64,000 bases of DNA from Candidatus Omnitrophota bacterium (lineage in GTDB: Bacteria; Omnitrophota; Gorgyraeia; Gygaellales; Profunditerraquicolaceae): positions 1,059 through 65,058 of the forward strand of contig JAPLLS010000093.1 in the NCBI GenBank assembly GCA_026387435.1, given 5' to 3'. Both the position numbers and the translations under genes were made by a program. The stretch's first letter is position 1, and each line of letters starts with the position of its first letter. This document shows, one piece after another, positions 43,376 through 59,504 of the stretch. The notes beneath the pieces are model-generated. The model was given only the letters and a program-made list of their open reading frames with translations, ran no database searches and was not told the origin of the DNA.

Positions 43376-43551
43376 TTGTATCCATCCTTGGGGCGGGTAA
43401 GAAGAAACCGCTTTCAAATTCCGCCCTTGCCCGTCTTGAAAACTACTCTATATATTATATACTTATTATATAAGGTTGAGAGACTCTAGTGCCTTCCAGC
43501 TGGTTACTGGGAGGTCTCTTTTTCTCCACAAAACAAAAAGTTTGTAAAAGT

Positions 43552-44580
43552 ATGATCAATCGGATTTTAGCATTTCTAATTTCGTTTTGTCTTATCTTCG
43601 AGCAGACCGGGTTTGCCCAGCTGGCTATTCCTATAGGCATACCCGGATATTTGAGTTTGCTGGCTCCGGTCGCCGATAAATTCCGGCCGATCCATCTGCG
43701 TTCCATTGATCTTAGCTCCGGTAATGGTAATTTCGAACTCATCCTGGACAAAGGCGACCTCAAGGATATCCAGCCCCGCCAGCTGGAAGAAACGACCAAA
43801 GAACTCTACCGATATTTCCAAATAGGTTTAGCTTTACCGAACAAGTATTTCTGGGTCAACCTCAGGCCGGATTCCCCTGATAGCATGATCGAGCCTTTGC
43901 TGGCCAAGACCGATCTGGGCAAGGTGATGCTAGAAGCCGATCTGCAGCTGAAAAAAGACCTGGCCAATTTTACATCTCTCCAGACTCCGGAAGGCAAACT
44001 TTACTGGGACAAACTTTACTCTAAAGCCAGCGAGCTTTACAACCAGCAGGATATCCAAATTCCCACCTTGACCCGTCCCTGGATCGTTCCCGGAGAAGTG
44101 GTGATTCGCTCTAGCCAAACCGGGGCTTTTGTTTACAAGGCTACGCTTAAGGTAATGCTGGAGCAGGACTATATCAAAGATTCCCCGGCGTATAATTTTA
44201 ACGACCCCCGGCTAAAAGAACTCAATGGTTATTCCTCTCAGCTTATCCGCGAACTGATCATTCCCAAGCTGACCCGGGAAGTCAATTCTTCCCGGCGCTA
44301 CTCGCAATTGCGCCAGGTTTATTATTCGTTGATCCTGGCCCAGTGGTTTAAGTCGAAATCTTTTGGAGTGGCTATGGTCGAAGGTCGGGTGGCGATGGCA
44401 CAAAAGACCGATAGCCAGGACTTGAGCGGGTTGACTTCCAAAACCAGCTGGTCAAAAGACACTTATTTCCAGGCCTACAAGAAGTCGTTCCAGAAAGGCG
44501 AATACAACCAGCAGGAGCAGGTGAATTCGCTCAATGGAATATCGATCCGGCAATACACCAGCGGCGGGATCCAGATAATG
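43552..44580 (+). repeat. About 1.03 kb direct repeat (copy 1): the shared 5' module of the two giant genes.
   Basis: About 88% nucleotide identity to 58476-59504. One example of several long identical runs: cggtcgggtggcgatggcacaaaagaccgatagccaggacttgagcgggttgacttccaaaaccagctggtcaaaagacacttatt occurs in both copies. Confidence 0.85.
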
Positions 44581-47500
44581 GATCAACTGAAGATCCAGGA
44601 GATCCCGGGCAGTGTCGCTGACTTCTTCACGGGTAACCAGGAATACTTTGCCAGGTTGTCGATGAATTCCCTGACCGGTGATGTGAATATCTTACCGGCA
44701 AGTCCTGTTTTAAAATCCGGCGGAGCACAGGAGTTTGACGGCGGGAAAAAGATAAGTCAGGAATCGGAGAAGGCAAAAGACGCAAAGCGAGGTAATGATC
44801 AGGCTTTTTCCTCGGTGCGCGAAAAGTTCATGTTGTTGACCGAGGCCGAAAAGGAGGAGCTTAATCGCAGGCTTAGAGAGCTGCACCAGGATTCACTCAG
44901 TCAGACGAGTCTCAATAAAGAAGAAAGCGATCGGGAATTCTATACCATCACTATCCGCGAGCAAAGGAGATTCATCGCGGTGTTCCTGGATAAATTCTGC
45001 GCGGAGATCGATCTGGAAGTCGCGTTAAGAAAGGAAGAAGCTGCTGTCCGCACTCTCGGTTATTTATTCTCGAAGATCGCGGGGTTGTTCGCCAAATATC
45101 TATCAAAGAAGAAGGAAATAGGAAAGAACAGGCTGGAAGCGGTCAAGCGCCGGGAGATTTTCGACCGGGCCTGGCAGGAAGCAAGCCGGATCTATCTGGA
45201 CATGTTCCCGCAGCCGGAGAAAAGAACTTGGAACGCGCCTGCCAATGTGCCGGCTATCTACGCCGAGGCATACGACAAATTGCAGAGTTGTCTGACAACA
45301 GACATCCCGGCTTTATTCCTTTATTCGCTTGAGTCGCGGGACAGCCTGGACAGGGCGTTTGAGCTTTATCAACGGAATAATCCTCAGGTCATTGTTGAGC
45401 GGGTCATTTGTACGCCGGACAGCGACCGCATGCAGTTGATCGGCGCGGACATGCCGGTTAGCGCGCAGGATCGGGAATTCTCCAAAGAAAAGATACGTTT
45501 CCAGAAAGGCGTATTATACCGGTTGGTAGACCAGGCCAAGGCGGATCCTTCCAAGATTTTCGTGCTTCGATTAGAGCAGGTCGAGGCTTTGTCGGCCAAG
45601 GTCTGGGTGCAGTTGAACCAGTTCTTGCTTACGGGAGAGTTGTGGATACCCGAAACCAACGAAAAACTTATTCTTCCCGACAACCTTAAGATCGTAGCTT
45701 CCCTTTCCAGCGGCCTAAGGGACAGCGCCTTTTACGACCGCTTCCTGCGTAAGCAGTTGAATATCCCGGACAGGAAAAGCCTGGTTGATTACGCTGTGAC
45801 CAGGTTCGGACTGCCTCAGGTGTTGATAGAGGAATATTGTAATCTGCAGGCGGATAACAGCGACAAGATCACCATGGGGCAGCTTTTAGTGCTGTTTTCA
45901 TATATGAAGGGGCGGCTGGCTGATGAAAATATCAGCGCGAATTCCCAACGCGGCAGGGCGATCATCACTGAAGAACGGGATCTGTTTTTCAGATCGATGG
46001 CCAGGGGCAAGGAGAATATTTTGCTGGCAATGGGCAAAAAAGAGGAAGAACCCGGCGGAGGAAACGATCCGGATACGGAAATGCTTAATGAAGTATTGGA
46101 ATTCTCGACGGAGAACCGATTGCAAATTACAGCTGATTTCACTCCTGAAGAGATAGGGGAGATTGTACTCAAATATCCCGCTGACTGGAAGAATAAACTG
46201 AAAGAGTTGAAGCTTATAAAAGAAGAAGAACGGGATCTGTTTTTCCTGGCCCGTCGGAGCAATGAGGGTCCTCTAAAAGGAATTAATCCGGACGACGAAA
46301 CAGCAATGATGGTCCTGGAGTACGGCGGCAAGATTGGCGAAGTTTATTCCCGGATGGGAGAACTTCGCACTTATGCTGGTCTGCACAAGATAGACCTTTC
46401 ACTTGAAGAAGCCCGTGTGATCGCGATATTAGCTCCTGACCAGATAGAGGGGATTCTGAAAGGCCGGGAGGATGTTAGTGAGGTTTTGATGCTGGTTGAG
46501 ATGCGTATGGCGTTCCAGTCCGTAATAACCATTGTCCCGGGAGTAAAGAACGTTTTGGTGTTCGAGCCCAAAACCGGCCGGTTCATGGCGGATGGAGTGG
46601 AATTGCCTATTCGCTCTGAACTCAAGGACAAGATCGCCGAGGCGATGAAAACACGGGATATGGAGCAGGCGATCAGGGAAGTGTTCAAGGCTGAGCTGGG
46701 TTTGACTTTGACCCAGGACGTAGCGCGCACGCTGAGCGCTATTTCCCGTAATTACCGCTACGGCACCCGGGTCCTGCGGCTGGAAGGCCCGACCGGGACC
46801 GGCAAGACGTTCATGGCCCAGGCTTTGGCCAAGATGCTGGACATTCCTTTTTACGGAGAGCCGTTCCACGCCGCCAGCAAACAGTCGAAACTTCTGGGAG
46901 CGCTCAAGCCCGATGAGAAAGCGGATTATTACATGGATTCGGACACGCCGTTTCTGCAAATACTGGAAAAGGGCGGGGTTGTCGCGCTTTCCGAGCTTAA
47001 TGCGGCGGTAAAAGATGATAAAGCCCGCTTCGGCTGGCTGATGGTGCCTTTGGCTCGGGGTGACGAAAAGTTCATCCTTAACCAGTATCCTGACGGTAAA
47101 GAAACGACGCGGGAACTGACCCGCCATCCGGATTCAATGGTGATCATCGATATCAACCCCACGGAATCATACGAGGCCCGCGGCCAACTTCCGGGTCCGC
47201 TTAATGAAGTTACTCCCGCGGTCTGGGTGGAAGGCAGGTTCGAGTCTCAAGAACTCGAGGATATTTCCGGCGATTATCTCGCCGGCCTCGCGCAGGAAGA
47301 TCTTGACTATTACCGCGGAAAGATCGCCGGCCTGCATTTCGCGATACAACAGGAGCTGGCGGATGAGGATGGCCCGTGGCGGCAGGAGGAAAAAGAGAAG
47401 CGCGAGAAATTCGGAGGCGTAGATATTACCCAGATGCTTAAGGCAGGGCGTATGTCGCCGATGAAGGCAATGAAGGTCTTCGGTCCAATGTTCGGGGTTA

Positions 47501-50500
47501 AGATGGAAGGGCATGATGAGGAAATGGCGATACAAAAGACGCTGGCAATAGACGCGCCGCATATCATCAGCCTGCGCGAGCTCAAGCGCGCCTGCCGGAT
47601 GATCGCGGAGAATAACGGGAAGCTCAGCCGGGAGCAGAACCTGATCGAAGCGGTGATGTTTTATTACGGTTTCGCTTTCAAGGAGATCGGCGATCAAGAG
47701 CGGGTTGAGCGGTTTATCCGCAGGATCCTCGCCCCTTCGGCTCCGAAGTGGGAACCGCCGATCGCCATCGAGAAATTCGTCGCGTCAGGACACAGGGTGA
47801 TATGTCTGGTGCTGGATCCCGAAGGCGCAGACATGCAGGAATTGCGGAAGGCAATGAAGAATAACGAGATCGACAAGCTAAATATTGAACGGATAAATGG
47901 CTGGGTGCCCCTTGAAGTAGCCAAACAGGGTAAAATTGTCAACGCTGAAAAGGAATATCCGCGGCTTAGAGCCACTATTGAACAATTATTCGAGAATGAT
48001 TCTGAGTCTTTCGAGAAATCGATAGGATTTTTGATCACCTTAAAGAAGCAGAATAAACCTGATCAGGGAGTTGTTGTTAGCAATGAACTCGATCAGAAGC
48101 TCCAGGAGCTAAAATCGGCAGCGGAACAATGGGCCGGTTCAGGAAACAAGTTAGTTAAGCCCTGGGAGATGTTAGATATGATCGAAAAGGAGCAGCAGCG
48201 CAAGTCCGGAACAACGGTTGAAGTAATGGCGAAAGTCCTGGCAGGTAAGCCGCCGAGCATTTCGAAAGAATTTGCAAAAAAACTGCTGGAATTGCGGTCA
48301 AGGCCAGCGCGCACATCCGGAGTGGCTGAAGAAATCGAGAAAGAACTGAAGGAAACGCCGCCGCCGTTTGTTAGTTCGGGAACCAATGATATCCCGCTGC
48401 GTACAAGGTCCGTGAGAGAAGATATCAGGGATTGGGGGACCAATCCTGACCGGCCGATTGTTGCAAGGCCAGACATGAAATCAGATGAGTACGGGGTAAT
48501 GGTAATGGATGTTGATGGTACTTTAATCGGGTCGCGCTTATCGGGCGTGGCAGAAGATATTGAAAAAGAGTTAATTAAACTGATGCGTTCAGCTGTTGAA
48601 CCTGCTACCGGTGTTCCAGTGGATTGGAATCAAATAATGCTGAAATATTTGAAGGAGCCGGAGCCTCCGCTGGCGGAGTTCCAGGATAAGGGGTTGCAGT
48701 ATTATCTCGACTATTCGCTATTCAGGACGAAGGAGCCGACCCTGTTATCCATGGACGCGGTGAATGATCCTATGGCTCAGTTGCGCTCTGCAGCGGAAAA
48801 ACGCGGCCGGGTGGTTATCGAGAAGCTCAATACCAACCTGTTCACCGACGATTTCACCCTTTTCGGCGGATATATCCCGGACAGCGAGCGGGAAGCAGAA
48901 ACCGGCGAAGCCCAGCTGCGCTTGGCTGACGGAGCGATGTCGCGTTTCATCGCTCAGGCGGCCAAAGCCCGGGAAGAGGATAAAAACCTGCCTGAGGCAG
49001 AACGCCGGATATTCGTCCTGGCTTTCGAGAATTACCATTACCTGCGGCCGCAGATCGCGGTGGCGCTTAACGTGATCCTTCAGGAACGGGTGTATTATCC
49101 TCCGACAAGCACAGACAGGATAGAACTGCCGGATAACCTGCGTTTCTTCGCCACAGCGACCAATGAGGCGGAATTCAACCTGTCGCTGGCCGAGCAGTCA
49201 CGCTGGGCGAGGATATTCTTCCATAAGCCTAACGGGCCTGCTCCGCAGGCAGATAATGATCTGTACAGCTCAGCTGATCCTGGATTGGCGGGTATGCTGC
49301 CGACTGTAGCCGGCGGAGCAATGCCATACGATAACGATTCGATTAGCGCAAAGGATCTGATGAGAATGGCGAGAGTAGATGTAGAAGGTATGTTGGTAAA
49401 CAAGCCCTCACGGCCGCCTTCTGACAGCGGTTCAATGACCACCGCCGGCGGTGCTATGCTGGATATCCTCACCTCAGCGTCTGAGCTGGCTGAAAAGTAT
49501 TTAAAGGATGCAGGTATTAAGATCAAGATCGAGGATAATGGTAAAATTACTTTGCCGGAGTTGAGGGAGATGAAATACAAGAGGCTAGGTTCCCTGGAAG
49601 AAAAACTTAAGGGGGCGGATGATAAGGAAATCTCCAGCTTTGCTCAAGATGACCTTGTGCCGCGTTTCACCGCCGACCCAAAGCTTGAGCAGTTGATCGA
49701 GGACTATTGCCGGGAATTTCCTGCGGTGGACAAGGAGGAGGTCCGGGTCGCGGCAGAAGCAGTTGCCAAAAAGAAGGGCCCGGGTGAGGAGCCGGTTACT
49801 ATAAAAGAAGTACAGTATACCAGCGCGGAAGAATTGCGCAACGCCTACAAGATTGAACCTTTCGAGCGCCAGCACGAGCCATTGGCAGAAGAGGAGTTGA
49901 TGGTCCCCACTAATGAACTTCTGCGCCAGGAAAGCATGATGGTCAACGCCATGAACCGGGGCCAGGTGATCATCTGCGAAGGCGAGCCGGGCGGAGGAAA
50001 AACGGACATGGGCATCGACATCGCCGAACGCCTCGGACTTGATTCCTATATTTATTCCGGCCATGCCGGAGCGCATTTGCGCGATTTTATCGGCGCCTAT
50101 ACCAAAGACGAGAAAGGCAGGTTCGTTCTGACCTGCCTGCCGGATAAGGACGGACATTTCAAGGTGCCGTTCTTGGAATTCTACACTCACGGCGGAGTTT
50201 ATACTTTCGACGAAGGCGCGCTGGGTAAATATCCCCAGGCTTTGATCAGCTGGCTGACCGGGATCGCCCGCGGGGAGCAGGAGTTGGTGATCAATGAGCA
50301 TCCCGGCCAGGAGCCATTGCGGCTCAAGCGGCATAAACATTTCCATATCGTCATTACTACTAACCCTGTTGATGAGACTCCGGGAAGAGAATCGATCTCC
50401 GTTGAAGTCCTCAAAGCGGCGCGCCGGATCTGGGTGGAGAACAAACTTAGCGACGCCTCGTACCAGGCGATCCTGGACCGTTTTTACGATTTTTACTCCC

Positions 50501-53500
50501 GTCAGAGCAAGGTAGAGCTGATTGCTGACCGCGACGGCCTGATCGGACTTAATATCGCTTTGCACAAACTGATGCAGAAGTTCGTGAGCGATGAAGTCAC
50601 CCTCGAGAATCCCGAACGCCACCTGTTGACCATGCGCGACATGCGCGGATGGGTCAAGGCGTTCATGAGCGAGTTGGGCAAAGGCGTTTTGCTTGAGGAA
50701 GCGTTCATGACGCCGTTCGAGCTTTTTTACCTGAAGCAATTCAGCCCTGAGGCATATGCGCTGGCGAGGGAACAGGTTGATAGCCTGCTGCTGAATCAGG
50801 AGATCGCCAAGGTGTTCAACAAAAAAGCATTAAAAGAAAGTAATGGGCGGCCATTGAAATACGCGGCAGCCGAAACGATCAGGACAACCCCCTCAAAGAC
50901 AATCAAGTCGGGGTCGGCCGGAAATGTCAAAGCTCAGGCCAATGAACAAAGCCTTATCGCGCATGAATGGACGGGGGAACTAAAGGTAAGCAAAGAAGAT
51001 GCGGTTATGACTGATGAGCGCCTGAAATCTCTCCAGGAATTAGTGGCTAGTCTGAGTTTTCCCGAGTCTTCTGTGCATTTCCACTACGGGGATATGGCAA
51101 TCCTGAAGGGCGCCTCTGGAGAAGATGTGTTCGTGTACACAGAAGCAGGATCGATCATGATTTTAAGAAAGAATTCCGCGGGCAGATTTGAGCGGACTGA
51201 AATCAAGAATTCGTTGCAAGGATCCGGTCGCTCTTTTAACGCGTTTCTCAATGAAAGAGGTTTGCTTACTGTCGTAACCAAGGAGTTTGATAGTGACAAG
51301 ATCACCCTGACCAGGGAAATGGAGCCGGATGTTTTTAGATCCAAGACTATCCAGGTAAACGGCATCGATCATTTTGGCCTTAGCTTTAAGGCGATTCAGG
51401 ATCTTCAGGGCAAGTTGGTTTTTGCCGACACCAACGAGCAAAAGAGCGTGATTACTCTATGCCGGGAGAGGGACAATTTTATTCCTAAAGACCTGATGTT
51501 CTCAGGGCATGATCTTTGCCGCAGGATAGATCTCCTGGAAGACGCGCAAGGAAAGTTGACAATAGCCGTTTCCGGCGAAGATACGCTGGCGATCATGCAG
51601 GAGAAGAACCCGGATGAGTTTGAGGTCAGGGAGCTCCGGAAGTCAACCCTTTCCAACGGCCAAGTCCAGCTGATGCGAGATAAAGAAAGCAAACTGATCA
51701 TTGCTGCCGTCGGAATGTTAAGCGGTACAGGCCCCAAGGATCCCCTTCCGGAGAAGAAAGACGGGCTCACTATCTTGCGGGAAGAGGATGATCAGACTTT
51801 CTCGGAAAGCCGGTTGGAAGGGAAAATTTACGGCAGTTTTGACGCGATGACGGACGAAGAAGGGTTTTTGTCGATAGTTTCATATAATCCGGAAAGACAT
51901 AGCCAAGCGGGGAAGGAAGAGTTGTATAATTCTCCTGAGATTGCTCTCTTGAAAGAGGTCTCGCTTGATGAATTTACCCGGAAGATTATGAAAAGGCCGG
52001 AAGAAAAAACGGTGACCAATAAAGTCAATATATTCAGGGATCAAGATGGCAGCGTGTCATTTGTTTCCGGGCACGTTGGCTATATCAACATCTGGAAAGA
52101 CGATGAGGCGCAGTTTACGGCATTTGGCGCGGCCGACCCGGCCCGGGCTAAGCCGAAGAAGTTCGCCAGCTCCGAAGTAGTTAAGCATACAAGTGGCCCC
52201 ATTGCGACGAAGAACATCGGCGCCTTAGAGGTGAGCGATGTTAAAGATTATTCCGCCGGGGAGCTGAAAACAAAGACAGTCGAAGCGGTCAGCGCGGTCG
52301 GTAAAGTTGAAAATATGAGCTCGAGCGTCTTGCGAGAACTGAAGTTTGAGTTAAGGATCGAGGAGTATCCGAATTTTTCCGGAGATAAGATCAGGGTGGT
52401 CCGGGATGAACAAGGGCTTTTGACCATTGTCACCATTTCTTCCGCGGATATCGCGATCTGGCGGCAGAACGCCGAAGGCGGCTTCGAGGTCTCGATGGTA
52501 AAAGGCGCGCAGGACAATTGGGGCACGCAGATGAGAGTTGTTCCGGGCAGCGACGGGTTGCTTTACATTGTTACCGAAGCTGAAAAAGACGATGGGTTGA
52601 AAGTGTGGCAGGAGATCGAAAAAAATAAGTTCCGGATCACGATCTTGCCGCGCCCCGCTTCAGGCAGAGGATTCGACGCATTTTCTGACGACAAGGGAGG
52701 GCTGACTATTGTCAACAGCCATTCCAGGGCCCAAGATGAAGATTCGATCAAGAACGGGGATTCTACCTTTGATATCTGGGAAATCCATAAAGACGGCTCG
52801 TGTGCCCTGCGCCAGGGGGTGTTGCCTGCAGTTCCAACTCGAAAGAAGGTGTTTTTGCTGTGGGCGGGCAGGGATCCTTCAGGCCGCTTGCAGTTCATGT
52901 GTGACGATCCGGCAAACTCGAATGATATTCTTATTTGCACCGAGGTTCAGAAAGATCGTTTTAGTATCGAGTTATTGAGGGCGGGGAATGAGGATATTCT
53001 GCTTGCTAAGGGAGCGTTCCGGGATGGAGCGGGAAAACTAAATATTTTTGGCCGTATGTCAAAGCAGGGGCCGGTGTTATTCGACCAGACCGAGCAGGGG
53101 AAATTCGTCCAGACAGTATTAGATATGCCTCTGTTTGGGGCGAGTGTCGCGGTGACTAAAAACAGCTGGGGTTTGTATTCGCTGGGGGTGAATAGTAAGG
53201 AGTACGAATCCAGCATAGGTATCGAGTCCAAGGTGAGCCTGATTGCCCAGGGGCAAGACAAAGAATTCCGGGTCAAAAAATTCAGGTTAAGGGAAAATTT
53301 CGACGAAATTATTGCTTTCGTCGATGAAGAAGGATACAGCACGTTCGTGTCAAGCCATGAGGGAGTGATCAGGATCTGGAAAGACGATGAGGAACGGTTC
53401 AAGAAAGCGCCTGAGCCATTGCCGGATGAGCAGGAAGAATTCGTCGATAAGGGGTTGACCATCGGATCTGAGGAACAGGTTAAGGCTGATCTGTCCAGGG

Positions 53501-56500
53501 TCTTCGAATACGGAGCGCACGGTTTGCTGCTTTTGGAACCGGGTGCGCGGGAACATCAGATTATCAGGGAATTCGGAAAAGAAAACGGCTACCAGTTGCT
53601 TCATCTTGAAAGCGTTCCGGAAATGACCGATATGGAGATCATCGGAGGGCTCTTCCCGATACTGGAGGATGAGCCGCGGGATAACGGCAGGGAATTCCGC
53701 GTCAAGCCGGGATTCCTCAGCCGCCACCTGGTGCCCGAGGAACAGCGCAACGAGCCGGGCAAAAAGAAGCTGCTGATTTTGCATAATATCGACGCTCTTC
53801 CGGAGCGGGTCCGCGCGGCGCTGAATAATTTCCTGATCAAGGGTTACTTGGAGATCAAGGATGATTCGGGCAGGAGCAAAAGGTATTATCTGCCTTCCGG
53901 CACGGACATCGTCGCGACGATATCCTCAAAAAGCCAGCGGGAATTTTCATCCGCGTTCTTCAACAGGTTCGTCAAAATTTATGTGCCATCGATAAAAGTA
54001 TTCCACCGGGGTTTTTCCGAACTGCTCCAGTTATTGATGTTCCAGTGCGGTCTTTCGGAATACGAAGCGCGCCAGCTGCAGAAGATCTATATCATGGTCA
54101 AGGCTCTGGAAGAAGGCGGCCAGTTCTGGCCTTCGGGGACCGATTATAATTTCACGGCCAAGGACGCGCTGCTCTTAGGAGAATTCGTCAGGCTGGCCAG
54201 GCAGGAAGCAGGCGGACAACTGGGCCGGAAAGACATGGAACGGTTGATCGTTCAGGAAGCGCTGCGCGCCTACGGTGGCCGGCTCTGCGAGCATGAAGAG
54301 GATTATACTAATTTTGTCGATTTGATCCTTAAGAATATTTTCGATCACGAAGTGGTAGAGGAGCTTTCCGGTGAGGTTTTGATGGAAGAAGGCCGACTGC
54401 TCGCTCTTTCGGGAGTGAATCTTCCCGCGGGAAGCCGCGGCTTGGCCTGGGATAAGACCGATCCGCGCTACCGCTTGACCCTGGTGCCGACGATCACCCG
54501 GACGATGTCCGGGATCCTGCGCGGATGGCAGGCGGGCAGGATGGTCAGCATTGTCGGCGAGACCGGGGTGGCCAAGACCACGATGGGTGTTTTTCTTTCC
54601 CAATTGCTGTTCGGAGCGTCAAACGGCATGGAGCATTATTACATCTACTCGACCCACGGCGAATCCAAGGCCAGGGACATGACCGTTCAGCTGCGCATGA
54701 ACCGCGAAGGGGCATTCCGCTTGGAGATGCAGGAATTCCTCAAGCGGGTCAAAGCCGGCAACCAGGTGATAATAGTCGACGAAGCGAACATGCGCCCGGA
54801 AATGCTCTGGGTGCTCAACGGCATTGCCCGCGGTGAGAAAGAGGTAAGCGTGGAGATCCCCGGTGAAGAGCCGTTTACCGTCGAGATTGGCGACAATGTC
54901 TATATCCTTCTGACTATGAACCCGGAGAGTTACACTGACCGCGGAGAGGTCCCGGGAGTGCTTCTGGAGAATGTTTTCCGGCTCTGGGCACCGGCACGTT
55001 ACGCTCAAGATGAGGTCATCCGGATCCTGAATGATCTTATCGACGCCTCCCAGCAGGCGGCGGTTTCCAAACGGTTATCGTTAATACAGGCGCGGTCAAC
55101 GCTTTCCGGAGCGGCGGCGCTGGTGACCCTTGAGGATTTTATCAAGCGCGTCGATGAGATAGGCTTCGATAATGCGCTGGAAGAACGCACGATCAAAGAA
55201 TTGCGCAAGCTGGAGAGGGATATCCTGGCCATGGAAAGCGTGCGAAAGAAGATGAACAAGGTGCGCTCCGGTGTGGCGGTCGCCGTTCCTAAAACCCGGA
55301 TCATCTTCTCGATCCTGACCTGGTGGGGTTCGACCGACGACCGCACGACCATCATCGTTCCGCTGCACGAGCTGGCCAATTCCAAGCGCACTCCCGAGAC
55401 GATCATCGGGATCGTCCTGCATGAGGCGCGCCATCAGCTTTATTCGCTTTCTCACCCGGAAATGGAAAAAGTCGCGGAGCCCGAACATTTGCAGATCGTA
55501 AAAAAAGAAGAATTCCACAATTTCTGGAACGGCTTGGAGGATGTGCGCATAAATTATATCAACGATCCGGTAATGGCCGGGGAACGCGCTTATATCAAGG
55601 CCTCGCTTGATGAGATGTGTAAGGATCTGACCCAGGAGCAGATCTCCGAGATGGTAAAGAACTATGAGTTCGAGATGGACAATATCTTCTTATTTGAGCT
55701 GGTTTTTTACGGAAGGACAGGCCGCTACCGGAATTCATTCGCCTCCCTTCCTGAGCCGATGCAGCAGGCGCTTAGATCGGTCATCGAGAAAAACGGCGCG
55801 GAACAATCATTGCTTGATCAGGTTACGAACAACGAGCAGGTCCTGCCGGATATGGCCGGGATACAGCAGGGGAAAAAGGATTTTGCCCAGGAGCGTTTGC
55901 GCTCGGGAAAGGTTTCGCTGGGCGCGATGTGCGCGAAGATCTGGCCAATATACGAGAAACTATTGAAGCAGGCCGATGAAAACCGCGAGAAAGCCGGCAA
56001 GAAAAAAGAGGGCAAAGGCGGGCGCGGCAAGGGAGGGGGTAAAGGTAGTGGCGGGCAAAGAGACGGAATGCCGTCATTCGGAAGGATTAGTCGGGAAGAA
56101 TTGGAGGATCTGATCGAAAATACTCCTCTTGGCGCGCTGCCTGAATCGCTGAGGGGCGGCCGGTCCGGCGGCAGACCCGGGAGAGGTAATCCAGCCGGCC
56201 AGGATGATGCCGGGGGTGGCGAGGGATCGGAAGGGGACGGATCCGAGGGAGATAATAACGACGATAACCAGTCAGGGCGGCCGAATTTCATGAATGACGA
56301 AGACCGCGACAAGGACGCGGATAATGATCTGGATAGAAAGATCAATGAGGCCAAGAATAAGCGTACGGAAGAGATGAAGAAAAATGAACCGTTAAATTAC
56401 GCTTTAAGCAATATTCCGGCGGCCAGTAAGCGGCTTGCCGACGGACTGGTGCAGCTGTTCCGCGTCCCGGACGAGCCGGATATAGAGGAGTCTCCTTCAG

Positions 56501-58470
56501 GATGGAAGATAAATCCGGTGCGCTATCTTTTGCGCAACATGAATCCCTTCGACGAAGAAGAAGACCGGCCGGGTAAGCCTGATCTGGCGTTCGGGGTGAC
56601 CATAGATCTGAGCGGCAGCATGCAGGGGTATTTTAAAGCGATCAAGGACATGAACGCGCTGTTCATGGCTACGTTCCAGAAGATCGGCAGGAAAAAGATA
56701 GATTACAGCATGGGTTACGAGAACAGGGCTTTCGGGGTGGTCAAGGCATTCGACGAGAAGCTGGGGCAGTCAGAATTGAACCGCAAATACGGGGAGTTCG
56801 GCGCCATCATCGATGCCCGCGGAAGGCCGGAAGATATAGGGGGAGAGGGGATCCATCTCTATGTCGCGGTGTGCGGAGTGATCGATAAATACAAGGCCAC
56901 TAAAAAGAAGAATAAGATCGAGATTATCATTACCGATGGGCAGGATATGGGAGGAGACTTGAGTTACGACATGTCCGGTCGTCCGATACCTTCTTTCAGG
57001 CTGAAACGCAAGCTGGATGAAGCCCGGCACCTGGGGATCGAGATCGTGGGGGTTGGTTTTAATACCCGCGATACCGAGGTCTTCGGAAAGTGGGTGCAGC
57101 TGGACGCGAACCAGGCGGACGCGGTGGTGGAGGCGCTTCTAAAGATCGCGCGCAGAAAGGCGCTCAGCGGCAAGCTGCCTGACGGGAACCTGGTTTCGGC
57201 GCTGAATATCAACCTCAACAGGTCCTGGGATAAAAGTCGAGCCGACGGCGGCAGCGAAGAGGCGGGATTCCGGTACGGCCAGAACGATAATGTTCAAACG
57301 GAAGATTTCGGTATTTCCCGCACAGCGCTTTCAACCCAGCAGCTTGGGCAGATGGAGCGGGGGGACGCGGTCATTACCATCGGCAGCTCCAAAGAATGGC
57401 GGGAAGCGAATGAGTCATACGCAGGATTCGTATTCAAGAATGGGACATTAATGCGATCCTGGGCGGCCGGAAAACCGCCGGCGATAAGCGGTGTTGTGCT
57501 GGCGAAATCCCTTGTCCGTGCCCAATCAAGACAGGAAGACAAGTCAGGGGGGGCGGTCAGCAAATATAGTGATTTTCGTACCGATTTAGAATCGTACAAT
57601 CGGCGTTTTTCTCCTCTTCTGGGAACAAAGATAGAGGAATATGTGATCGCGCAGGTGCGAAAAACAAAACAGATAATGCGGATCCTTGATTGGGGCTGCG
57701 GCGAAGGAGTCGCTTTAGTTGAACTGCTCAAGCGCCTGCCTGAAGATGTGCGTCCTATGGTCAAACTGTACGGCTTTAGCAATATGTATTTCGACGACTG
57801 GAAATTCCCCGAAGCAGCTGGTATCGATTTTATCCTCGATGACGGCCAGAACATCGGCTCTTATTTCGGAGGGGAACTCCCGATCGACATGGTCATCAGC
57901 AATCTCGGCTTGTGCCATGTCGAAGATATCGCTTATCTGGAAAAGATCGGCGCGATCATGAAGGACGAGGGGATACTGTTGACCGATGCTGTTTATGATG
58001 AACAGACCTGGGAAGACTGGCAAAAGTCGGCAAGGCAATTGTTCGAAATCAACTTTGATAAAAGAGCGACAAGATTAATGGCAAAGAAGAAGTCAACTTC
58101 CCGACCAGTCGGTCAGGACGGTGGAACGGCGCAAACAGATGATTTGGGCGGTATCGATTTTCGCCAGATCCCAGTAGCTGGTGAATCAGCGGTGACTACA
58201 GCGCTTACTCCGCAGCTGCAGCAGCTGGCGCAGAATTCCAAGATGGCAGATTTGGACCAGGAATGGAGCTGCATCCGTGGAGAAATGCTCGCTCCCCAGA
58301 TGCCGTACGGGAAGATCAGGGAATACATCGCGGTCTGCCTGAGCAGGCCGGGCTGCCGGAAGAAACTGGACCAGGCAGTAACCTGCATCATCGATATTCT
58401 CAGGATGGAAGAAGATCAGGCTCTGGCTACTAACCAGGAGCTCAAAGATATATTGATGTATTTAAGCTAA
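43552..58470 (+). CDS. Giant (about 4,973 aa) secreted or anchored midasin-like protein. It has an N-terminal conserved module, five or more AAA+ (AAA_5/MoxR-dynein class) modules, a repeat-rich linker, an acidic low-complexity tract, a VWA/MIDAS domain and a C-terminal class I SAM methyltransferase-like domain.
   Basis: One uninterrupted ORF. The start is chosen at MINRILAFLISFCLIFEQTGFA (signal-like), in line with the downstream paralog. Walker A motifs: GPTGTGKT (~46785), GEPGGGKT (~49981) and GETGVAKT (~54557). Degenerate AAA_5 modules at ~45556-45710 and ~53521-54000 carry the family's ...HP.F.hhhT.NP-like signatures. MIDAS motif DLSGS at 56604-56618, with ITDGQD at ~56925. MTase motif I ILDWGCGEG at 57681-57707. 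Confidence 0.85.
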   Translation: MINRILAFLISFCLIFEQTGFAQLAIPIGIPGYLSLLAPVADKFRPIHLRSIDLSSGNGNFELILDKGDLKDIQPRQLEETTKELYRYFQIGLALPNKYFWVNLRPDSPDSMIEPLLAKTDLGKVMLEADLQLKKDLANFTSLQTPEGKLYWDKLYSKASELYNQQDIQIPTLTRPWIVPGEVVIRSSQTGAFVYKATLKVMLEQDYIKDSPAYNFNDPRLKELNGYSSQLIRELIIPKLTREVNSSRRYSQLRQVYYSLILAQWFKSKSFGVAMVEGRVAMAQKTDSQDLSGLTSKTSWSKDTYFQAYKKSFQKGEYNQQEQVNSLNGISIRQYTSGGIQIMDQLKIQEIPGSVADFFTGNQEYFARLSMNSLTGDVNILPASPVLKSGGAQEFDGGKKISQESEKAKDAKRGNDQAFSSVREKFMLLTEAEKEELNRRLRELHQDSLSQTSLNKEESDREFYTITIREQRRFIAVFLDKFCAEIDLEVALRKEEAAVRTLGYLFSKIAGLFAKYLSKKKEIGKNRLEAVKRREIFDRAWQEASRIYLDMFPQPEKRTWNAPANVPAIYAEAYDKLQSCLTTDIPALFLYSLESRDSLDRAFELYQRNNPQVIVERVICTPDSDRMQLIGADMPVSAQDREFSKEKIRFQKGVLYRLVDQAKADPSKIFVLRLEQVEALSAKVWVQLNQFLLTGELWIPETNEKLILPDNLKIVASLSSGLRDSAFYDRFLRKQLNIPDRKSLVDYAVTRFGLPQVLIEEYCNLQADNSDKITMGQLLVLFSYMKGRLADENISANSQRGRAIITEERDLFFRSMARGKENILLAMGKKEEEPGGGNDPDTEMLNEVLEFSTENRLQITADFTPEEIGEIVLKYPADWKNKLKELKLIKEEERDLFFLARRSNEGPLKGINPDDETAMMVLEYGGKIGEVYSRMGELRTYAGLHKIDLSLEEARVIAILAPDQIEGILKGREDVSEVLMLVEMRMAFQSVITIVPGVKNVLVFEPKTGRFMADGVELPIRSELKDKIAEAMKTRDMEQAIREVFKAELGLTLTQDVARTLSAISRNYRYGTRVLRLEGPTGTGKTFMAQALAKMLDIPFYGEPFHAASKQSKLLGALKPDEKADYYMDSDTPFLQILEKGGVVALSELNAAVKDDKARFGWLMVPLARGDEKFILNQYPDGKETTRELTRHPDSMVIIDINPTESYEARGQLPGPLNEVTPAVWVEGRFESQELEDISGDYLAGLAQEDLDYYRGKIAGLHFAIQQELADEDGPWRQEEKEKREKFGGVDITQMLKAGRMSPMKAMKVFGPMFGVKMEGHDEEMAIQKTLAIDAPHIISLRELKRACRMIAENNGKLSREQNLIEAVMFYYGFAFKEIGDQERVERFIRRILAPSAPKWEPPIAIEKFVASGHRVICLVLDPEGADMQELRKAMKNNEIDKLNIERINGWVPLEVAKQGKIVNAEKEYPRLRATIEQLFENDSESFEKSIGFLITLKKQNKPDQGVVVSNELDQKLQELKSAAEQWAGSGNKLVKPWEMLDMIEKEQQRKSGTTVEVMAKVLAGKPPSISKEFAKKLLELRSRPARTSGVAEEIEKELKETPPPFVSSGTNDIPLRTRSVREDIRDWGTNPDRPIVARPDMKSDEYGVMVMDVDGTLIGSRLSGVAEDIEKELIKLMRSAVEPATGVPVDWNQIMLKYLKEPEPPLAEFQDKGLQYYLDYSLFRTKEPTLLSMDAVNDPMAQLRSAAEKRGRVVIEKLNTNLFTDDFTLFGGYIPDSEREAETGEAQLRLADGAMSRFIAQAAKAREEDKNLPEAERRIFVLAFENYHYLRPQIAVALNVILQERVYYPPTSTDRIELPDNLRFFATATNEAEFNLSLAEQSRWARIFFHKPNGPAPQADNDLYSSADPGLAGMLPTVAGGAMPYDNDSISAKDLMRMARVDVEGMLVNKPSRPPSDSGSMTTAGGAMLDILTSASELAEKYLKDAGIKIKIEDNGKITLPELREMKYKRLGSLEEKLKGADDKEISSFAQDDLVPRFTADPKLEQLIEDYCREFPAVDKEEVRVAAEAVAKKKGPGEEPVTIKEVQYTSAEELRNAYKIEPFERQHEPLAEEELMVPTNELLRQESMMVNAMNRGQVIICEGEPGGGKTDMGIDIAERLGLDSYIYSGHAGAHLRDFIGAYTKDEKGRFVLTCLPDKDGHFKVPFLEFYTHGGVYTFDEGALGKYPQALISWLTGIARGEQELVINEHPGQEPLRLKRHKHFHIVITTNPVDETPGRESISVEVLKAARRIWVENKLSDASYQAILDRFYDFYSRQSKVELIADRDGLIGLNIALHKLMQKFVSDEVTLENPERHLLTMRDMRGWVKAFMSELGKGVLLEEAFMTPFELFYLKQFSPEAYALAREQVDSLLLNQEIAKVFNKKALKESNGRPLKYAAAETIRTTPSKTIKSGSAGNVKAQANEQSLIAHEWTGELKVSKEDAVMTDERLKSLQELVASLSFPESSVHFHYGDMAILKGASGEDVFVYTEAGSIMILRKNSAGRFERTEIKNSLQGSGRSFNAFLNERGLLTVVTKEFDSDKITLTREMEPDVFRSKTIQVNGIDHFGLSFKAIQDLQGKLVFADTNEQKSVITLCRERDNFIPKDLMFSGHDLCRRIDLLEDAQGKLTIAVSGEDTLAIMQEKNPDEFEVRELRKSTLSNGQVQLMRDKESKLIIAAVGMLSGTGPKDPLPEKKDGLTILREEDDQTFSESRLEGKIYGSFDAMTDEEGFLSIVSYNPERHSQAGKEELYNSPEIALLKEVSLDEFTRKIMKRPEEKTVTNKVNIFRDQDGSVSFVSGHVGYINIWKDDEAQFTAFGAADPARAKPKKFASSEVVKHTSGPIATKNIGALEVSDVKDYSAGELKTKTVEAVSAVGKVENMSSSVLRELKFELRIEEYPNFSGDKIRVVRDEQGLLTIVTISSADIAIWRQNAEGGFEVSMVKGAQDNWGTQMRVVPGSDGLLYIVTEAEKDDGLKVWQEIEKNKFRITILPRPASGRGFDAFSDDKGGLTIVNSHSRAQDEDSIKNGDSTFDIWEIHKDGSCALRQGVLPAVPTRKKVFLLWAGRDPSGRLQFMCDDPANSNDILICTEVQKDRFSIELLRAGNEDILLAKGAFRDGAGKLNIFGRMSKQGPVLFDQTEQGKFVQTVLDMPLFGASVAVTKNSWGLYSLGVNSKEYESSIGIESKVSLIAQGQDKEFRVKKFRLRENFDEIIAFVDEEGYSTFVSSHEGVIRIWKDDEERFKKAPEPLPDEQEEFVDKGLTIGSEEQVKADLSRVFEYGAHGLLLLEPGAREHQIIREFGKENGYQLLHLESVPEMTDMEIIGGLFPILEDEPRDNGREFRVKPGFLSRHLVPEEQRNEPGKKKLLILHNIDALPERVRAALNNFLIKGYLEIKDDSGRSKRYYLPSGTDIVATISSKSQREFSSAFFNRFVKIYVPSIKVFHRGFSELLQLLMFQCGLSEYEARQLQKIYIMVKALEEGGQFWPSGTDYNFTAKDALLLGEFVRLARQEAGGQLGRKDMERLIVQEALRAYGGRLCEHEEDYTNFVDLILKNIFDHEVVEELSGEVLMEEGRLLALSGVNLPAGSRGLAWDKTDPRYRLTLVPTITRTMSGILRGWQAGRMVSIVGETGVAKTTMGVFLSQLLFGASNGMEHYYIYSTHGESKARDMTVQLRMNREGAFRLEMQEFLKRVKAGNQVIIVDEANMRPEMLWVLNGIARGEKEVSVEIPGEEPFTVEIGDNVYILLTMNPESYTDRGEVPGVLLENVFRLWAPARYAQDEVIRILNDLIDASQQAAVSKRLSLIQARSTLSGAAALVTLEDFIKRVDEIGFDNALEERTIKELRKLERDILAMESVRKKMNKVRSGVAVAVPKTRIIFSILTWWGSTDDRTTIIVPLHELANSKRTPETIIGIVLHEARHQLYSLSHPEMEKVAEPEHLQIVKKEEFHNFWNGLEDVRINYINDPVMAGERAYIKASLDEMCKDLTQEQISEMVKNYEFEMDNIFLFELVFYGRTGRYRNSFASLPEPMQQALRSVIEKNGAEQSLLDQVTNNEQVLPDMAGIQQGKKDFAQERLRSGKVSLGAMCAKIWPIYEKLLKQADENREKAGKKKEGKGGRGKGGGKGSGGQRDGMPSFGRISREELEDLIENTPLGALPESLRGGRSGGRPGRGNPAGQDDAGGGEGSEGDGSEGDNNDDNQSGRPNFMNDEDRDKDADNDLDRKINEAKNKRTEEMKKNEPLNYALSNIPAASKRLADGLVQLFRVPDEPDIEESPSGWKINPVRYLLRNMNPFDEEEDRPGKPDLAFGVTIDLSGSMQGYFKAIKDMNALFMATFQKIGRKKIDYSMGYENRAFGVVKAFDEKLGQSELNRKYGEFGAIIDARGRPEDIGGEGIHLYVAVCGVIDKYKATKKKNKIEIIITDGQDMGGDLSYDMSGRPIPSFRLKRKLDEARHLGIEIVGVGFNTRDTEVFGKWVQLDANQADAVVEALLKIARRKALSGKLPDGNLVSALNINLNRSWDKSRADGGSEEAGFRYGQNDNVQTEDFGISRTALSTQQLGQMERGDAVITIGSSKEWREANESYAGFVFKNGTLMRSWAAGKPPAISGVVLAKSLVRAQSRQEDKSGGAVSKYSDFRTDLESYNRRFSPLLGTKIEEYVIAQVRKTKQIMRILDWGCGEGVALVELLKRLPEDVRPMVKLYGFSNMYFDDWKFPEAAGIDFILDDGQNIGSYFGGELPIDMVISNLGLCHVEDIAYLEKIGAIMKDEGILLTDAVYDEQTWEDWQKSARQLFEINFDKRATRLMAKKKSTSRPVGQDGGTAQTDDLGGIDFRQIPVAGESAVTTALTPQLQQLAQNSKMADLDQEWSCIRGEMLAPQMPYGKIREYIAVCLSRPGCRKKLDQAVTCIIDILRMEEDQALATNQELKDILMYLS

Positions 58471-58475
58471 AACTA

Positions 58476-59504
58476 TGATCAAACAGATAGTAGCATTCCT
58501 AATCTCATTTTGCTTAATTTTCGAACAGACCGGGTTTGCCAAGCTGGCTATTCCTATGGGCATACCTGGTTATTTAAGTTCGCTCGCTCCGGTTGCCGAT
58601 AAATTCCGGCCAATCCATCTGCGTTCCATTGATCTCAATCCCGGTAATGGTAATTTTGAACTTATCCTGGATAAAGGCGACCTGAATGATATCCAGCCCC
58701 GTCAGTTGGAAGAAACCACCCAACAGCTTTACCGGTATTTCCAGGTAGGATTAGTTTTGCCGAACAAGTATTTCTGGGTCAACCTCAGGCCGGATTCCCC
58801 GGATGAAGTTATCGAGCCTTTACTGGAAAAGACCGATGTCGGCCGGATCATGTTAGCTAGCGATCTGCAATTAAAGAAAGACCTGGCCAATTTCACTTCT
58901 CCCCAGACTCCGGAAGGCAAACTTTACTGGGACAGGCTTTACGCCAAAGCAGGTGAGCTTTACAACCAGCAAGATATTCAAATCCCCACCTTGACCAGGC
59001 CGTGGATAGTTCCCGGGGAAATCGTGATCCGTTCCAGCCCAACCGGGGCTTTTGTTTACAAGGCTACTTTAAAAGTAATGCTGGAGCAGGACTATATCAA
59101 AGATTCCCCGGCTTATAATTTCAGCGACCCAAGGCTAAAAGAGTTGAACAGTTATTCCTCCAAGCTTATCCGCGAACTGATCATTCCCAAGCTGACCCGG
59201 GAAGTCAACTCATCCAAAAGATACGCTCAGTTGCGCCAGGTGTATTATTCGTTGATCCTGGCCCAGTGGTTTAAGTCGAAATCTTTTGGAATGGCTATGA
59301 TCGAAGGTCGGGTGGCGATGGCACAAAAGACCGATAGCCAGGACTTGAGCGGGTTGACTTCCAAAACCAGCTGGTCAAAAGACACTTATTATCGGGATTA
59401 CCGTAAATCATTCCAGAAGGGGGAATACAATCGCCAGGAGCAGGTCAGTTCCGTCTCAGGCCTTTCCATCCGCCAGTATTTCAGCGGCGGGATCATGATG
59501 ATGG
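58476..59504 (+). repeat. About 1.03 kb direct repeat (copy 2): the shared 5' module of the two giant genes.
   Basis: See copy 1. Identity falls off after ...SGGI(Q/M)IMD. Confidence 0.85.

Follow-up and report, generated by a model that had tools for sequence, protein, structure and literature searches.

Concatenated six-module AAA+ rings, such as those of dynein, midasin and RNF213, are held to be eukaryotic inventions that arose from single-module bacterial MoxR ATPases (PMC3495828). Midasin (Rea1/Mdn1), whose substrates belong to eukaryotic pre-60S assembly, is a chain of ~5,000 aa in which six AAA_5-class modules are followed by a ~1,700-aa helical linker, a long D/E-rich region and a MIDAS domain of the DxSxS...T...D type. 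Rea1 has functional sites in AAA2-AAA5, and in AAA1 and AAA6 only Walker B is missing (PMC6286127). RNF213 is described as a single-chain giant that joins a dynein-like AAA core to an enzymatic effector module (PMC7311170). The MoxR-VWA pairs, by contrast, are assembled from separate products: in NorQ/NorD, CbbQ/CbbO, RavA/ViaA and GvpN, ~270-aa subunits assemble into homo-hexamers and the VWA protein has a gene of its own. Here we describe an Omnitrophota gene in which six linked ATPase modules and a MIDAS-type domain stand in one chain, a layout previously described for eukaryotic midasin only and now present in a bacterial family. The original prediction, made from the DNA letters, had called a fused bacterial midasin analog with a methyltransferase effector domain undescribed, and our literature search likewise found no published description of a bacterial protein with such a layout.

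In the window (the whole stretch of 64,000 nucleotides that was analysed), a single open frame on the + strand runs uninterrupted for 14.9 kb (43489..58470), in keeping with the one 15-kb gene first proposed. The gene itself (43552..58470, +; 4,972 codons and a stop) is identical to MCX5708657.1, a 4,972-aa protein of a Candidatus Omnitrophica MAG that NCBI names 'AAA family ATPase'. Its start at ATG 43552, from which all residues are numbered here, is backed both by the family consensus N-terminus and by the deposited record. Upstream, in the AT-rich spacer past the LeuRS stop, lies a promoter-like site, TTGAAA-16-TATACT (43436..43463, +), recognised by a 10/12 consensus match alone. All features given below are on the same strand.

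Judged from profile comparisons, the ring region is a threefold repeat of a pair in which a degenerate AAA_5 module is followed by an active one. The odd modules, AAA1 (aa 570-773, 45259..45870; identified with our own HMM), AAA3 (aa 1705-1909, 48664..49278; own HMM and profile comparison) and AAA5 (aa 3301-3524, 53452..54123), lack both Walker A and Walker B and share an arginine, in the FFNRF motif of AAA5, that is invariant among 46 family members. The even modules are AAA2 (aa 1034-1379, 46651..47688; Pfam AAA_5, 27.9 bits), AAA4 (aa 2100-2400, 49849..50751; Pfam AAA_5 and AAA_7) and AAA6 (aa 3620-3900, 54409..55251; Pfam AAA_5, 22.3 bits), and they hold the three Walker A motifs that had been read from the DNA: GPTGTGKT at aa 1079, GEPGGGKT at aa 2144 and GETGVAKT at aa 3669. 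AAA4, with Walker B FDE and a conserved sensor-1 Asn and Arg finger, and AAA6, with Walker B VDE at aa 3743, are fully canonical, and each retains its DE pair in 46/46 family members. AAA2 probably binds nucleotide and hydrolyses it poorly: its Walker B reads ALSE, with Ser in place of Asp and the Glu retained, and the same Asp is replaced by Ser or Asn in 41/46 family members. A weak match to the midasin lid follows this module (aa 1333-1393; Pfam AAA_lid_7, 18.3 bits).

The kinship of the modules rests on profiles, which alone revealed the repeats; a BLASTP self-comparison of the whole protein showed no internal repeats, and phmmer of the whole protein against PDB returned P-loop-level matches to ClpX and McrB alone, with no midasin. 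With hhalign, module 1 aligned with modules 3 and 5 (E=3e-10 and 1e-14), the even modules aligned with one another (E 1e-20 to 1e-26), and the family profiles of odd and even modules aligned in register over Walker A, Walker B and sensor-1 (P=97.3%, E=2e-11), which identifies AAA1, AAA3 and AAA5 as AAA_5-class modules homologous to the even ones. A first odd-module profile of 13 sequences had found McrB alone, weakly (E=0.0055); the deeper family profile resolved the identity that the shallower one had not. The original prediction had counted at least two degenerate modules, and there are three. It had also expected Pfam AAA_5 to match five or six times; the family is indeed above threshold on the whole protein (72.9 bits), but in only three stretches, which together with the three degenerate modules are far from a solitary ATPase module. 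In an AF2 model of one odd and one even module (AAA5-AAA6, pLDDT 77.5) the pair adopts a tandem AAA+ fold, which Foldseek aligned with dynein motor domains over ~900-1,000 columns (E ~1e-13); the modelled pair superposes on tandem modules of dynein and of midasin.

Among solved structures, the active modules are by profile most similar to those of midasin. The even-module profile matched Rea1 with E=1.8e-76 and up to 57.7 bits per module, against 47 for dynein, 38 for McrB and 31 for NorQ, so that similarity to dynein is below that to midasin; midasin was also the sole PDB match of the AAA6 profile at E<=0.001 (E=8.5e-15). Midasin and MCX5708657.1 further share a size of ~5,000 aa, six AAA_5-class modules in one chain and, after the ring, a charged low-complexity tract and a VWA/MIDAS-type domain. 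To this extent the midasin-like order of the original prediction stands, but the ring is a triplicated degenerate/active pair and shows no positional orthology to Rea1 AAA1-6, because the even modules are closer to one another than to any Rea1 module (best match 1e-14) and AAA6 finds its best Rea1 match in AAA3. A true midasin orthologue acquired from a eukaryote was rejected because dead modules alternate along the ring and positional orthology is lacking.

The protein differs from the known systems in other respects: (i) The odd modules are without Walker A and B, whereas Rea1 keeps a P-loop in all six, and the host is bacterial. (ii) In place of the ~1,700-aa linker of midasin, ~240-260 aa separate AAA6 from the charged tract; the long linker that had been proposed is a ~260-aa helical region with an invariant HExxH. 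The acidic tract itself is ~60 aa. (iii) A signal-like start, an N-terminal domain (NTD), a double repeat insert, the HExxH region, a methyltransferase-like insert and a C-terminal domain (CTD) have no counterpart in midasin. (iv) Dynein lacks a VWA domain, and the insertion that it carries is a coiled-coil stalk with a microtubule-binding domain, where MCX5708657.1 has propeller-like repeats. (v) The MoxR-type traits (an AAA_5 module with Walker A, Walker B, sensor-1 Asn and Arg finger) are all present, but as six diverged modules, half of them catalytically dead, in one chain with the VWA domain. (vi) In Mg-chelatase, subunit D (BchD/ChlD) is a single-module chain of another AAA+ subfamily, and its hetero-oligomers are built from BchI and BchD as separate proteins. 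(vii) RNF213, likened to MCX5708657.1 by description only, is eukaryotic, has no VWA domain and has an E3 ligase as effector; its six-AAA ring is mostly inactive.

The low-complexity tract was found, by composition, essentially where it had been predicted (aa ~4140-4262, nt ~55969-56337): ~50 aa rich in G/K and then ~60 aa rich in D/E/G. It leads to the VWA domain (aa 4281-4564, 56392..57243), in which DLSGS stands at aa 4352 and TDG at aa 4461. The Pfam VWA match expected of it was sub-threshold on the single sequence (E=0.014), but a profile of the region from seven family members matched in PDB the PTMP1 VWA domain (E=2e-12), integrin I domains (~5e-4) and NorD (0.026), and we regard its VWA identity as shown by these comparisons. 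Of the DxSGS...T...D signature first proposed, DxSGS and the TDG Asp are invariant in the subfamily, while the middle MIDAS Thr, present in midasin, is not evident in the alignment; nor does the domain form the C-terminus, as had been supposed, since ~400 aa follow it.

We consider it rather probable that the gene encodes a cis-fused, single-chain remodelling machine of the MoxR/midasin type, within the AAA_5 (MoxR/midasin/dynein) class of AAA+ proteins. The six modules probably form a single closed pseudo-hexamer whose ATP sites lie in AAA2, AAA4 and AAA6, and the invariant Arg of the degenerate odd modules could complete the adjacent sites. The charged tract would be a flexible tether bearing the VWA/MIDAS-type domain, which would take hold of a protein substrate by one of its acidic residues, through a metal ion, and ATP-driven motion of the ring would pull on the gripped substrate or remodel it. 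This scheme is drawn by analogy with Rea1/midasin, NorQ/NorD, CbbQ/CbbO and RavA/ViaA, which are thought to act in this way.

MCX5708657.1 is not alone. An exhaustive search, run with three segments of the 4,972-aa protein, collected about 50-100 clusters of relatives of 3,000-7,600 aa, whose database entries bear generic names; those members that are named belong to Omnitrophota or Auribacterota. Mapped with our own HMMs, nearly all full-length relatives have the order (odd-even)x3 followed by VWA. One relative, P0231 (7,592 aa; ENA ERZ25039512 contig_83124, locus L010), carries the NTD of MCX5708657.1 (E=4e-92) and a HEAT-repeat region ahead of the ring; its six AAA_5 modules alternate as (A-B)x3, and a VWA domain stands at its C-terminus. 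All six of its P-loops are intact, its midasin lid domains exceed the Pfam threshold, and our odd-module and HExxH HMMs found no match in it. P0231 matched Mdn1 with E=2.5e-152 (512 bits, against 39 bits for NorQ), and 8/10 of the matched stretches pair AAA1/3/5 with A-type modules and the C-terminal parts of AAA2/4/6 with B-type modules, so that, from their alignment, both P0231 and Mdn1 seem to consist of a two-module unit repeated three times in a shared register. A further reading, which extends to the MCX5708657.1 family and, more clearly, to the P0231 type, is that the single-chain six-module ring of midasin and, via midasin, that of dynein have prokaryotic relatives in the NTD-bearing Omnitrophota giants. 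We hold this to be unlikely, although if it were true, the concatenated ring with a MIDAS tail would date not from 'early in eukaryotic evolution', where it is at present placed (PMC3495828), but from before eukaryotes, or would have been exchanged between eukaryotes and a lineage near the PVC bacteria.

Where the machine acts may depend on its two ends. The chain opens with a signal-peptide-like sequence, MINRILAFLISFCLIFEQTGFA, followed by Q (43552..43620), with a short hydrophobic core of 12 residues and small residues at -3 and -1; FEQxGFAQ at the N-terminus is conserved across 79 family members, and beyond the N-terminus there is no TM-like stretch. The sequence features of this start suggest export, which sits badly with the need for ATP: a signal-like start would lead to a compartment without ATP, in conflict with an ATPase role, unless the protein is cytoplasmic or is delivered into another cell. 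The start belongs to a lineage-specific NTD (aa 1-381, 43552..44694; own HMM) with at least 331 homologues, which heads many proteins of varied cargo, the adjoining giant gene included. At the other end, after a GGID(F/L) motif, stands a conserved CTD of ~110 aa (58102..58467). By jackhmmer, 11 other proteins end in the same domain: eight short ones (E 1e-39 to 1e-45), P0131 (4e-37), P0009 (1e-30) and the fragment P0174. The eight short proteins, of ~540-640 aa, are an NTD, a short spacer and a CTD, and nothing else. By these matches the NTD...CTD cargo proteins are an undescribed Omnitrophota family of which MCX5708657.1 carries both ends; the six-module machine would be the cargo between an Omnitrophota-specific NTD and its matching CTD, and this bracket presumably sets its destination. 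An N-terminal barrel of the inverse-autotransporter type was considered for the NTD and rejected, the model being mixed alpha/beta with no barrel.

These ends lend some substance to a rival in which the protein is a secreted effector for predation or host interaction, the signal peptide and the NTD/CTD bracket serve as exporters, and the ATPase works only once it has been delivered into a prey or host cell, whose cytoplasm contains ATP. Besides the signal-peptide features and the varied cargo of the NTD, most Omnitrophota long proteins are reported in two preprints to have signal peptides or TM helices, and are read there as extracellular effectors (10.1101/2023.11.21.568195; 10.64898/2026.06.07.730766). 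The Omnitrophota giant genes of West-Roberts et al. 2023 exceed 30,000 aa and have many TM helices and SecA DEAD-like domains, whereas MCX5708657.1 has 4,972 aa and no SecA match in Pfam; it fits instead a less strict class in preprint 10.64898/2026.06.07.730766, that of the 'long protein, signal peptide only'. Against the effector role, the flanks checked hold housekeeping genes, with no secretion-system genes beside the giant gene and no functional clue among its neighbours; the NTD partners include glycolytic enzymes (PGK and the GAPDH C-terminal domain) that look cytoplasmic; and the role of the NTD is a guess, because no known fold was found for this domain. We regard such an effector as possible but doubtful.

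A second rival starts from the region directly after AAA6. This helical stretch (55180..55959), a putative minimal zincin-like domain, contains HEARH at aa 3957-3961 and, downstream, the motif WN..ED.RI; the H, E, R and H are invariant in six homologues, which also conserve an acidic residue ~38 aa downstream. In the AF2 model both motifs lie in predicted helices and two short strands precede them. The zincin-like domain is offered as a hypothesis, because the region has no sequence match in Pfam or PDB; an expected match of the DUF2201_N type was not borne out. An ATP-dependent protease with FtsH-like logic could be read from this, in which the VWA domain and the propellers recruit substrates, the ring unfolds them and the HExxH domain makes the cut. 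The conserved residues, their position and the predicted helices agree with such a protease, and MoxR-vWA-peptidase degradation systems have been proposed by Zhang and Aravind 2012 (PMC3495828). However, our HMM for the HExxH region matches only a closer subset of the family, whereas ring and VWA domain are universal; substrate threading is not known for machines of the AAA_5/MoxR class; and a single-chain ring would bear one protease domain only. A dedicated protease seems to us unlikely. In the remodelling machine that we favour, processing or marking of the substrate may fall to the conserved HExxH region and the methyltransferase-like insert.

The methyltransferase assignment of the original prediction is weak. 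A class I SAM-methyltransferase-like region (aa ~4698-4830, 57643..58041) does contain motif I, ILDWGCGEG, at aa 4712, but no acidic residue can be made out at its usual place after strand 2, the Pfam scores fall below cut-off (Methyltransf_23 25.1 bits with a cut-off of 27, Methyltransf_31 22 bits, Methyltransf_25 15 bits), PDB gave no sequence match, and the region is absent from every collected homologue, being unique to MCX5708657.1.

Between AAA4 and AAA5 lies an insert of two tandem ~400-aa repeats (50908..53400; aa ~2453-2855 and ~2881-3283), which aligned with each other when the region was compared with itself by hhalign (P=94%, E=1e-7). They are probably two beta-propellers, by analogy with the homologues P0001 and P0005, whose precomputed Pfam matches place WD40 propellers beside their rings; the insert itself has no Pfam match, and neither a simple blade-motif search nor phmmer against the WD40 regions of the homologues established the fold. 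In the remodelling machine the double repeat would dock the ring on a partner. The insert, the HExxH region, the NTD and the CTD had all been overlooked in the original prediction.

In combining a vWA domain with a MoxR-class ATPase and what are probably propellers, the protein also recalls the MoxR-vWA-beta-propeller 'ternary' conflict systems of Kaur et al. 2020, which occur in PVC phyla (PMC7159879), and might be a cis-fused version of these, working in defence or biological conflict; the ring of P0231, moreover, matches Pfam bpMoxR with 81 bits. Yet PADLOC gave weak P-loop matches only (IetA, 22.9 bits), in the described systems single-module MoxR proteins are encoded separately and the vWA protein carries the propeller as a fusion, and the locus shows neither a third variable component nor a mobile-element context, and we judge a conflict role improbable. 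That the gene is an artefact, either an assembly chimera or a functionless, decaying mosaic, is close to refuted: the contig is metagenome-assembled and GC is slightly higher within the gene (0.50-0.55) than in its flanks (0.45-0.49), but the frame is unbroken, the catalytic residues are kept position by position in 46 members, P0131 and P0009 are collinear with it from NTD to CTD, and misassembly is unlikely because collinear full-length homologues occur in independent assemblies (P0009, P0131, P0132 and ~45 others).

Read as a remodelling machine, the gene, together with its family and the more canonical P0231, contradicts the view that such rings are eukaryotic inventions: uncultivated bacteria too would build single-chain AAA_5 rings with a tethered VWA/MIDAS domain, in which each ring position retains its own catalytic signature. 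The family would provide a bacterial system in which such rings can be studied with three live ATP sites only, a concrete set of sequences for asking whether the midasin/dynein ring has a prokaryotic relative, and, for one class of the enigmatic long proteins of Omnitrophota, a first foothold on function. The bracket of NTD and CTD, widespread and with a fold that has no known match, appears to carry varied cargo.

The gene next door had been overlooked at first as well. A second, paralogous giant gene (58475..64000, +) begins 4 nt past the stop of MCX5708657.1 and leaves the window after at least 1,841 aa; its sole Pfam match is a weak GNAT, and it shares with MCX5708657.1 the NTD, the rest being unrelated.

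The giant gene occupies a single unbroken open frame on the + strand (window 43489..58470), in which the ATG at 43552 opens 4,972 codons and agrees with the N-terminal consensus derived from 79 relatives; a sequence-identical NCBI entry exists on a 74-kb contig (MCX5708657.1, "MAG: AAA family ATPase [Candidatus Omnitrophica bacterium]"). Its product is best read as a bacterial cis-fused, internally triplicated AAA+-VWA machine of the MoxR/midasin class. The same-strand genes scanned upstream are housekeeping genes, including those for tRNA-Ala, LeuRS, RlmN, Dus and an AcrB-type pump, among others, and a promoter-like site (43436-43463) precedes the ATG. Between the two, a terminator-like hairpin with a T-rich run behind it (43491-43515) presumably forms part of the giant gene's 5' leader.

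Six AAA_5 modules, AAA1 to AAA6, make up the ATPase array. The three intact Walker A sites of the original prediction (in order, GPTGTGKT, GEPGGGKT and GETGVAKT) were all found, each in a module scoring above the Pfam AAA_5 threshold (at about aa 1077, 2143 and 3667), and in place of the two or more degenerate modules noted there, profile-profile comparison recovered three. These degenerate, odd modules (AAA1/3/5; aa 570-773, 1705-1909 and 3301-3524) match one another at E values of 5e-7 to 1e-14, and the even modules (AAA2/4/6; aa 1034-1379, 2100-2400 and 3620-3900) at 1e-20 to 3e-26. Profiles built across the family, from 156 odd and 189 even modules, show the two sets to be homologous (P=97.3%, E=2e-11), and in the alignment the odd modules hold other residues at the Walker A, Walker B and sensor 1 positions of the even ones. 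The giant protein is thus one degenerate plus active module pair repeated three times. Cross-matches to homologues also reveal similarity between the AAA5-AAA6 and AAA1-AAA2 stretches. The segment from AAA5 through AAA6 into the region behind it, modelled with AlphaFold (pLDDT 77.5, pTM 0.59), contains two P-loop-type alpha/beta modules with helical lids, and in Foldseek the AAA5-AAA6 model matches dynein motor domains over some 900-1,000 columns (E ~1e-13). When ring signatures were counted per position across 46 family members, AAA4 and AAA6 retained DE in all 46, with AAA6 usually carrying G..G.AKT as its Walker A, while AAA2 kept its Walker A and had the Walker B Asp replaced by Ser/Asn in 41; one arginine is invariant at all three odd positions.

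The insert between AAA4 and AAA5 consists of two tandem repeats of ~400 aa (self-hhalign P=94%, E=1e-7), which are likely two propellers, since WD40 propellers adjoin the rings of homologues. Immediately after AAA6 comes a helical region of ~260 aa with an invariant HExRH and, ~38 aa downstream, a conserved acidic residue within WN..ED.RI, both motifs lying in predicted helices. One hypothesis is that this HExxH region resembles a minimal zincin, and we hold it at that level because the region matches nothing in Pfam or among PDB sequences. The predicted G/K-rich then D/E/G-rich tract follows, with ~50 and ~60 aa respectively. The VWA domain is sub-threshold in Pfam on the single sequence (E=0.014); a seven-member profile matches VWA and integrin I domains (E=2e-12 to 5e-4) as well as NorD (0.026). 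As for its expected DxSGS...T...D MIDAS signature, DxSGS and the TDG aspartate are invariant, but the middle threonine is not evident in the VWA alignment of the giant gene's subfamily. The predicted methyltransferase fared less well: the stretch after the VWA has a motif I (ILDWGCGEG), but it stays below the Methyltransf_23 cut-off (25.1 bits against 27), matches no PDB sequence and has no counterpart in any collected homologue.

This architecture belongs to a family. When aa 3283-4480 were run exhaustively with HMMER against 1.84 billion representative proteins, 108 matched at E<=1e-3 and 52 of these at E<=1e-30; many are 3,000-7,600 aa long, and the scan stopped short of ordinary MoxR proteins. 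Custom HMMs mapped onto these relatives recovered three odd-even pairs and then a VWA in nearly every full-length member, with large inserts at varying points and the N-terminal domain (NTD) in a subset only. Among GTDB species representatives we found eight loci: five in Omnitrophota MAGs, two in Candidatus Auribacterota (L004 and L009) and one in a further bacterium. Four of the five Omnitrophota loci are paralogues in one MAG, nW3bin14 (JADGBR01; L003, L005, L006 and L007); their open frames range from 3,154 aa to 4,651 aa or more.

Against all PDB sequences, the even-module profile finds midasin/Rea1 first (E=1.8e-76), matching every one of the six modules of Rea1, the best of them with 57.7 bits, ahead of dynein (47 bits), McrB (38) and NorQ (31). 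A profile of AAA6 only has midasin as its sole PDB match at E<=0.001. Rea1 AAA3 is the module it matches best, and the bacterial even modules lie nearer to one another than to any module of Rea1; hence we see no position-for-position orthology. The live sites also differ: in Rea1 the sites of AAA2-AAA5 work and Walker B is missing from AAA1 and AAA6 (PMC6286127), whereas in the giant protein only AAA2/4/6 have an intact Walker A.

Sequence comparison puts the midasin likeness far closer in a bacterial relative of 7,592 aa, P0231 (L010 8001-30779, ENA ERZ25039512 contig_83124), of which P0207 is a fragment. P0231 shares the giant protein's NTD (E=4e-92) and has a region of HEAT repeats. Its six AAA_5 modules are all intact (465 bits in Pfam, over six stretches) and alternate between GETGVGKT and GPTGGGKT as Walker A; it also has midasin lid domains (AAA_lid_7, 95 bits), a dynein lid match and a VWA that passes the Pfam threshold with 37.3 bits. 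Searched by itself, the P0231 ring matches Mdn1/Rea1 at E=2.5e-152, scoring 512 bits where NorQ reaches 39. The modules form a triplicated A-B pair, and in eight of ten stretches matched to Mdn1 the A type corresponds to AAA1/3/5 and the B type to C-terminal parts of AAA2/4/6. Since the odd modules of the giant gene also prefer the A type, weakly, this register suggests that the bacterial rings and midasin may share a two-module ancestry.

The six-module chain is said to have arisen from MoxR early in eukaryotic evolution (PMC3495828), and the bacterial rings carry a more far-reaching possibility concerning the origin of the midasin ring. As anticipated, our literature search found no description of a bacterial or prokaryotic midasin, nor of one in Omnitrophota; one preprint goes no further than naming AAA_5 as a frequent domain in the giant proteins of Omnitrophota. 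The family's sequences are already public under generic names, and named members in the protein collection go by "AAA family ATPase" or "MoxR-like ATPase" alone.

With module order and homology, catalytic-residue conservation, VWA identity and the existence and spread of the family established, a mechanism can be proposed: (i) the six modules would form a single closed, pseudo-hexameric ring that has three sites for ATP, those of AAA4 and AAA6 being hydrolytic and that of AAA2 perhaps serving for binding or regulation; (ii) the dead odd modules would supply arginine fingers; (iii) the insert would dock the ring on a partner; (iv) the tethered VWA would grip a substrate via a metal ion, and ATP-driven movements would pull or remodel it, as proposed for Rea1 and MoxR-VWA pairs (PMC3495828, PMC7159879, PMC7973254); and (v) substrate processing may fall to the HExxH and methyltransferase-like regions.

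The NTD (first ~380 aa) opens with a segment resembling a signal peptide, the FEQxGFAQ end of which shows unusual conservation, and pairs with a C-terminal domain (CTD) of ~110 aa (window 58102-58467), just preceded by a GGID(L/F) motif and also C-terminal in the giant homologues P0009 and P0131. Short proteins of ~540-640 aa consist only of NTD, spacer and CTD (P0018, P0062, P0067, P0073, P0074, P0076, P0078 and P0096), whereas in giants cargo occupies the space between; PGK, a GAPDH C-terminal domain, HEAT repeats and an HD domain also stand behind this NTD. Such recurrence argues that the ATPase machine is itself cargo between two lineage-specific end domains. The called start of P0009 is too far downstream (L001 ~9790-10000); its frame extends upstream to MTPTRILSLFLCFCLILEQSLFAQ..., giving back the same signal-like N-terminus.

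The N-terminus of the giant protein resembles a cleavable signal peptide, but ATPases depend on ATP, and location is the weak point of our explanation. The protein may either stay at the cytoplasmic face or be delivered into another cell; delivery would agree with proposals that Omnitrophota are host-dependent or predatory, and with the reading of their long proteins as exported effectors (preprints 10.1101/2023.11.21.568195, 10.64898/2026.06.07.730766).

Four nucleotides 3' of the stop, a second giant gene begins on the + strand (58475-64000, continuing past the window end). The part inside the window is free of AAA modules; over its first ~390 aa it shares 81% identity with the NTD of the first giant gene, and the at least 1,450 aa beyond are unrelated to the first, with a weak GNAT match only. 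GC content is 0.50-0.55 inside the first giant gene (window 44001-58000) and 0.45-0.49 in flanking genes, and GC skew is positive all along the gene and its flanks.
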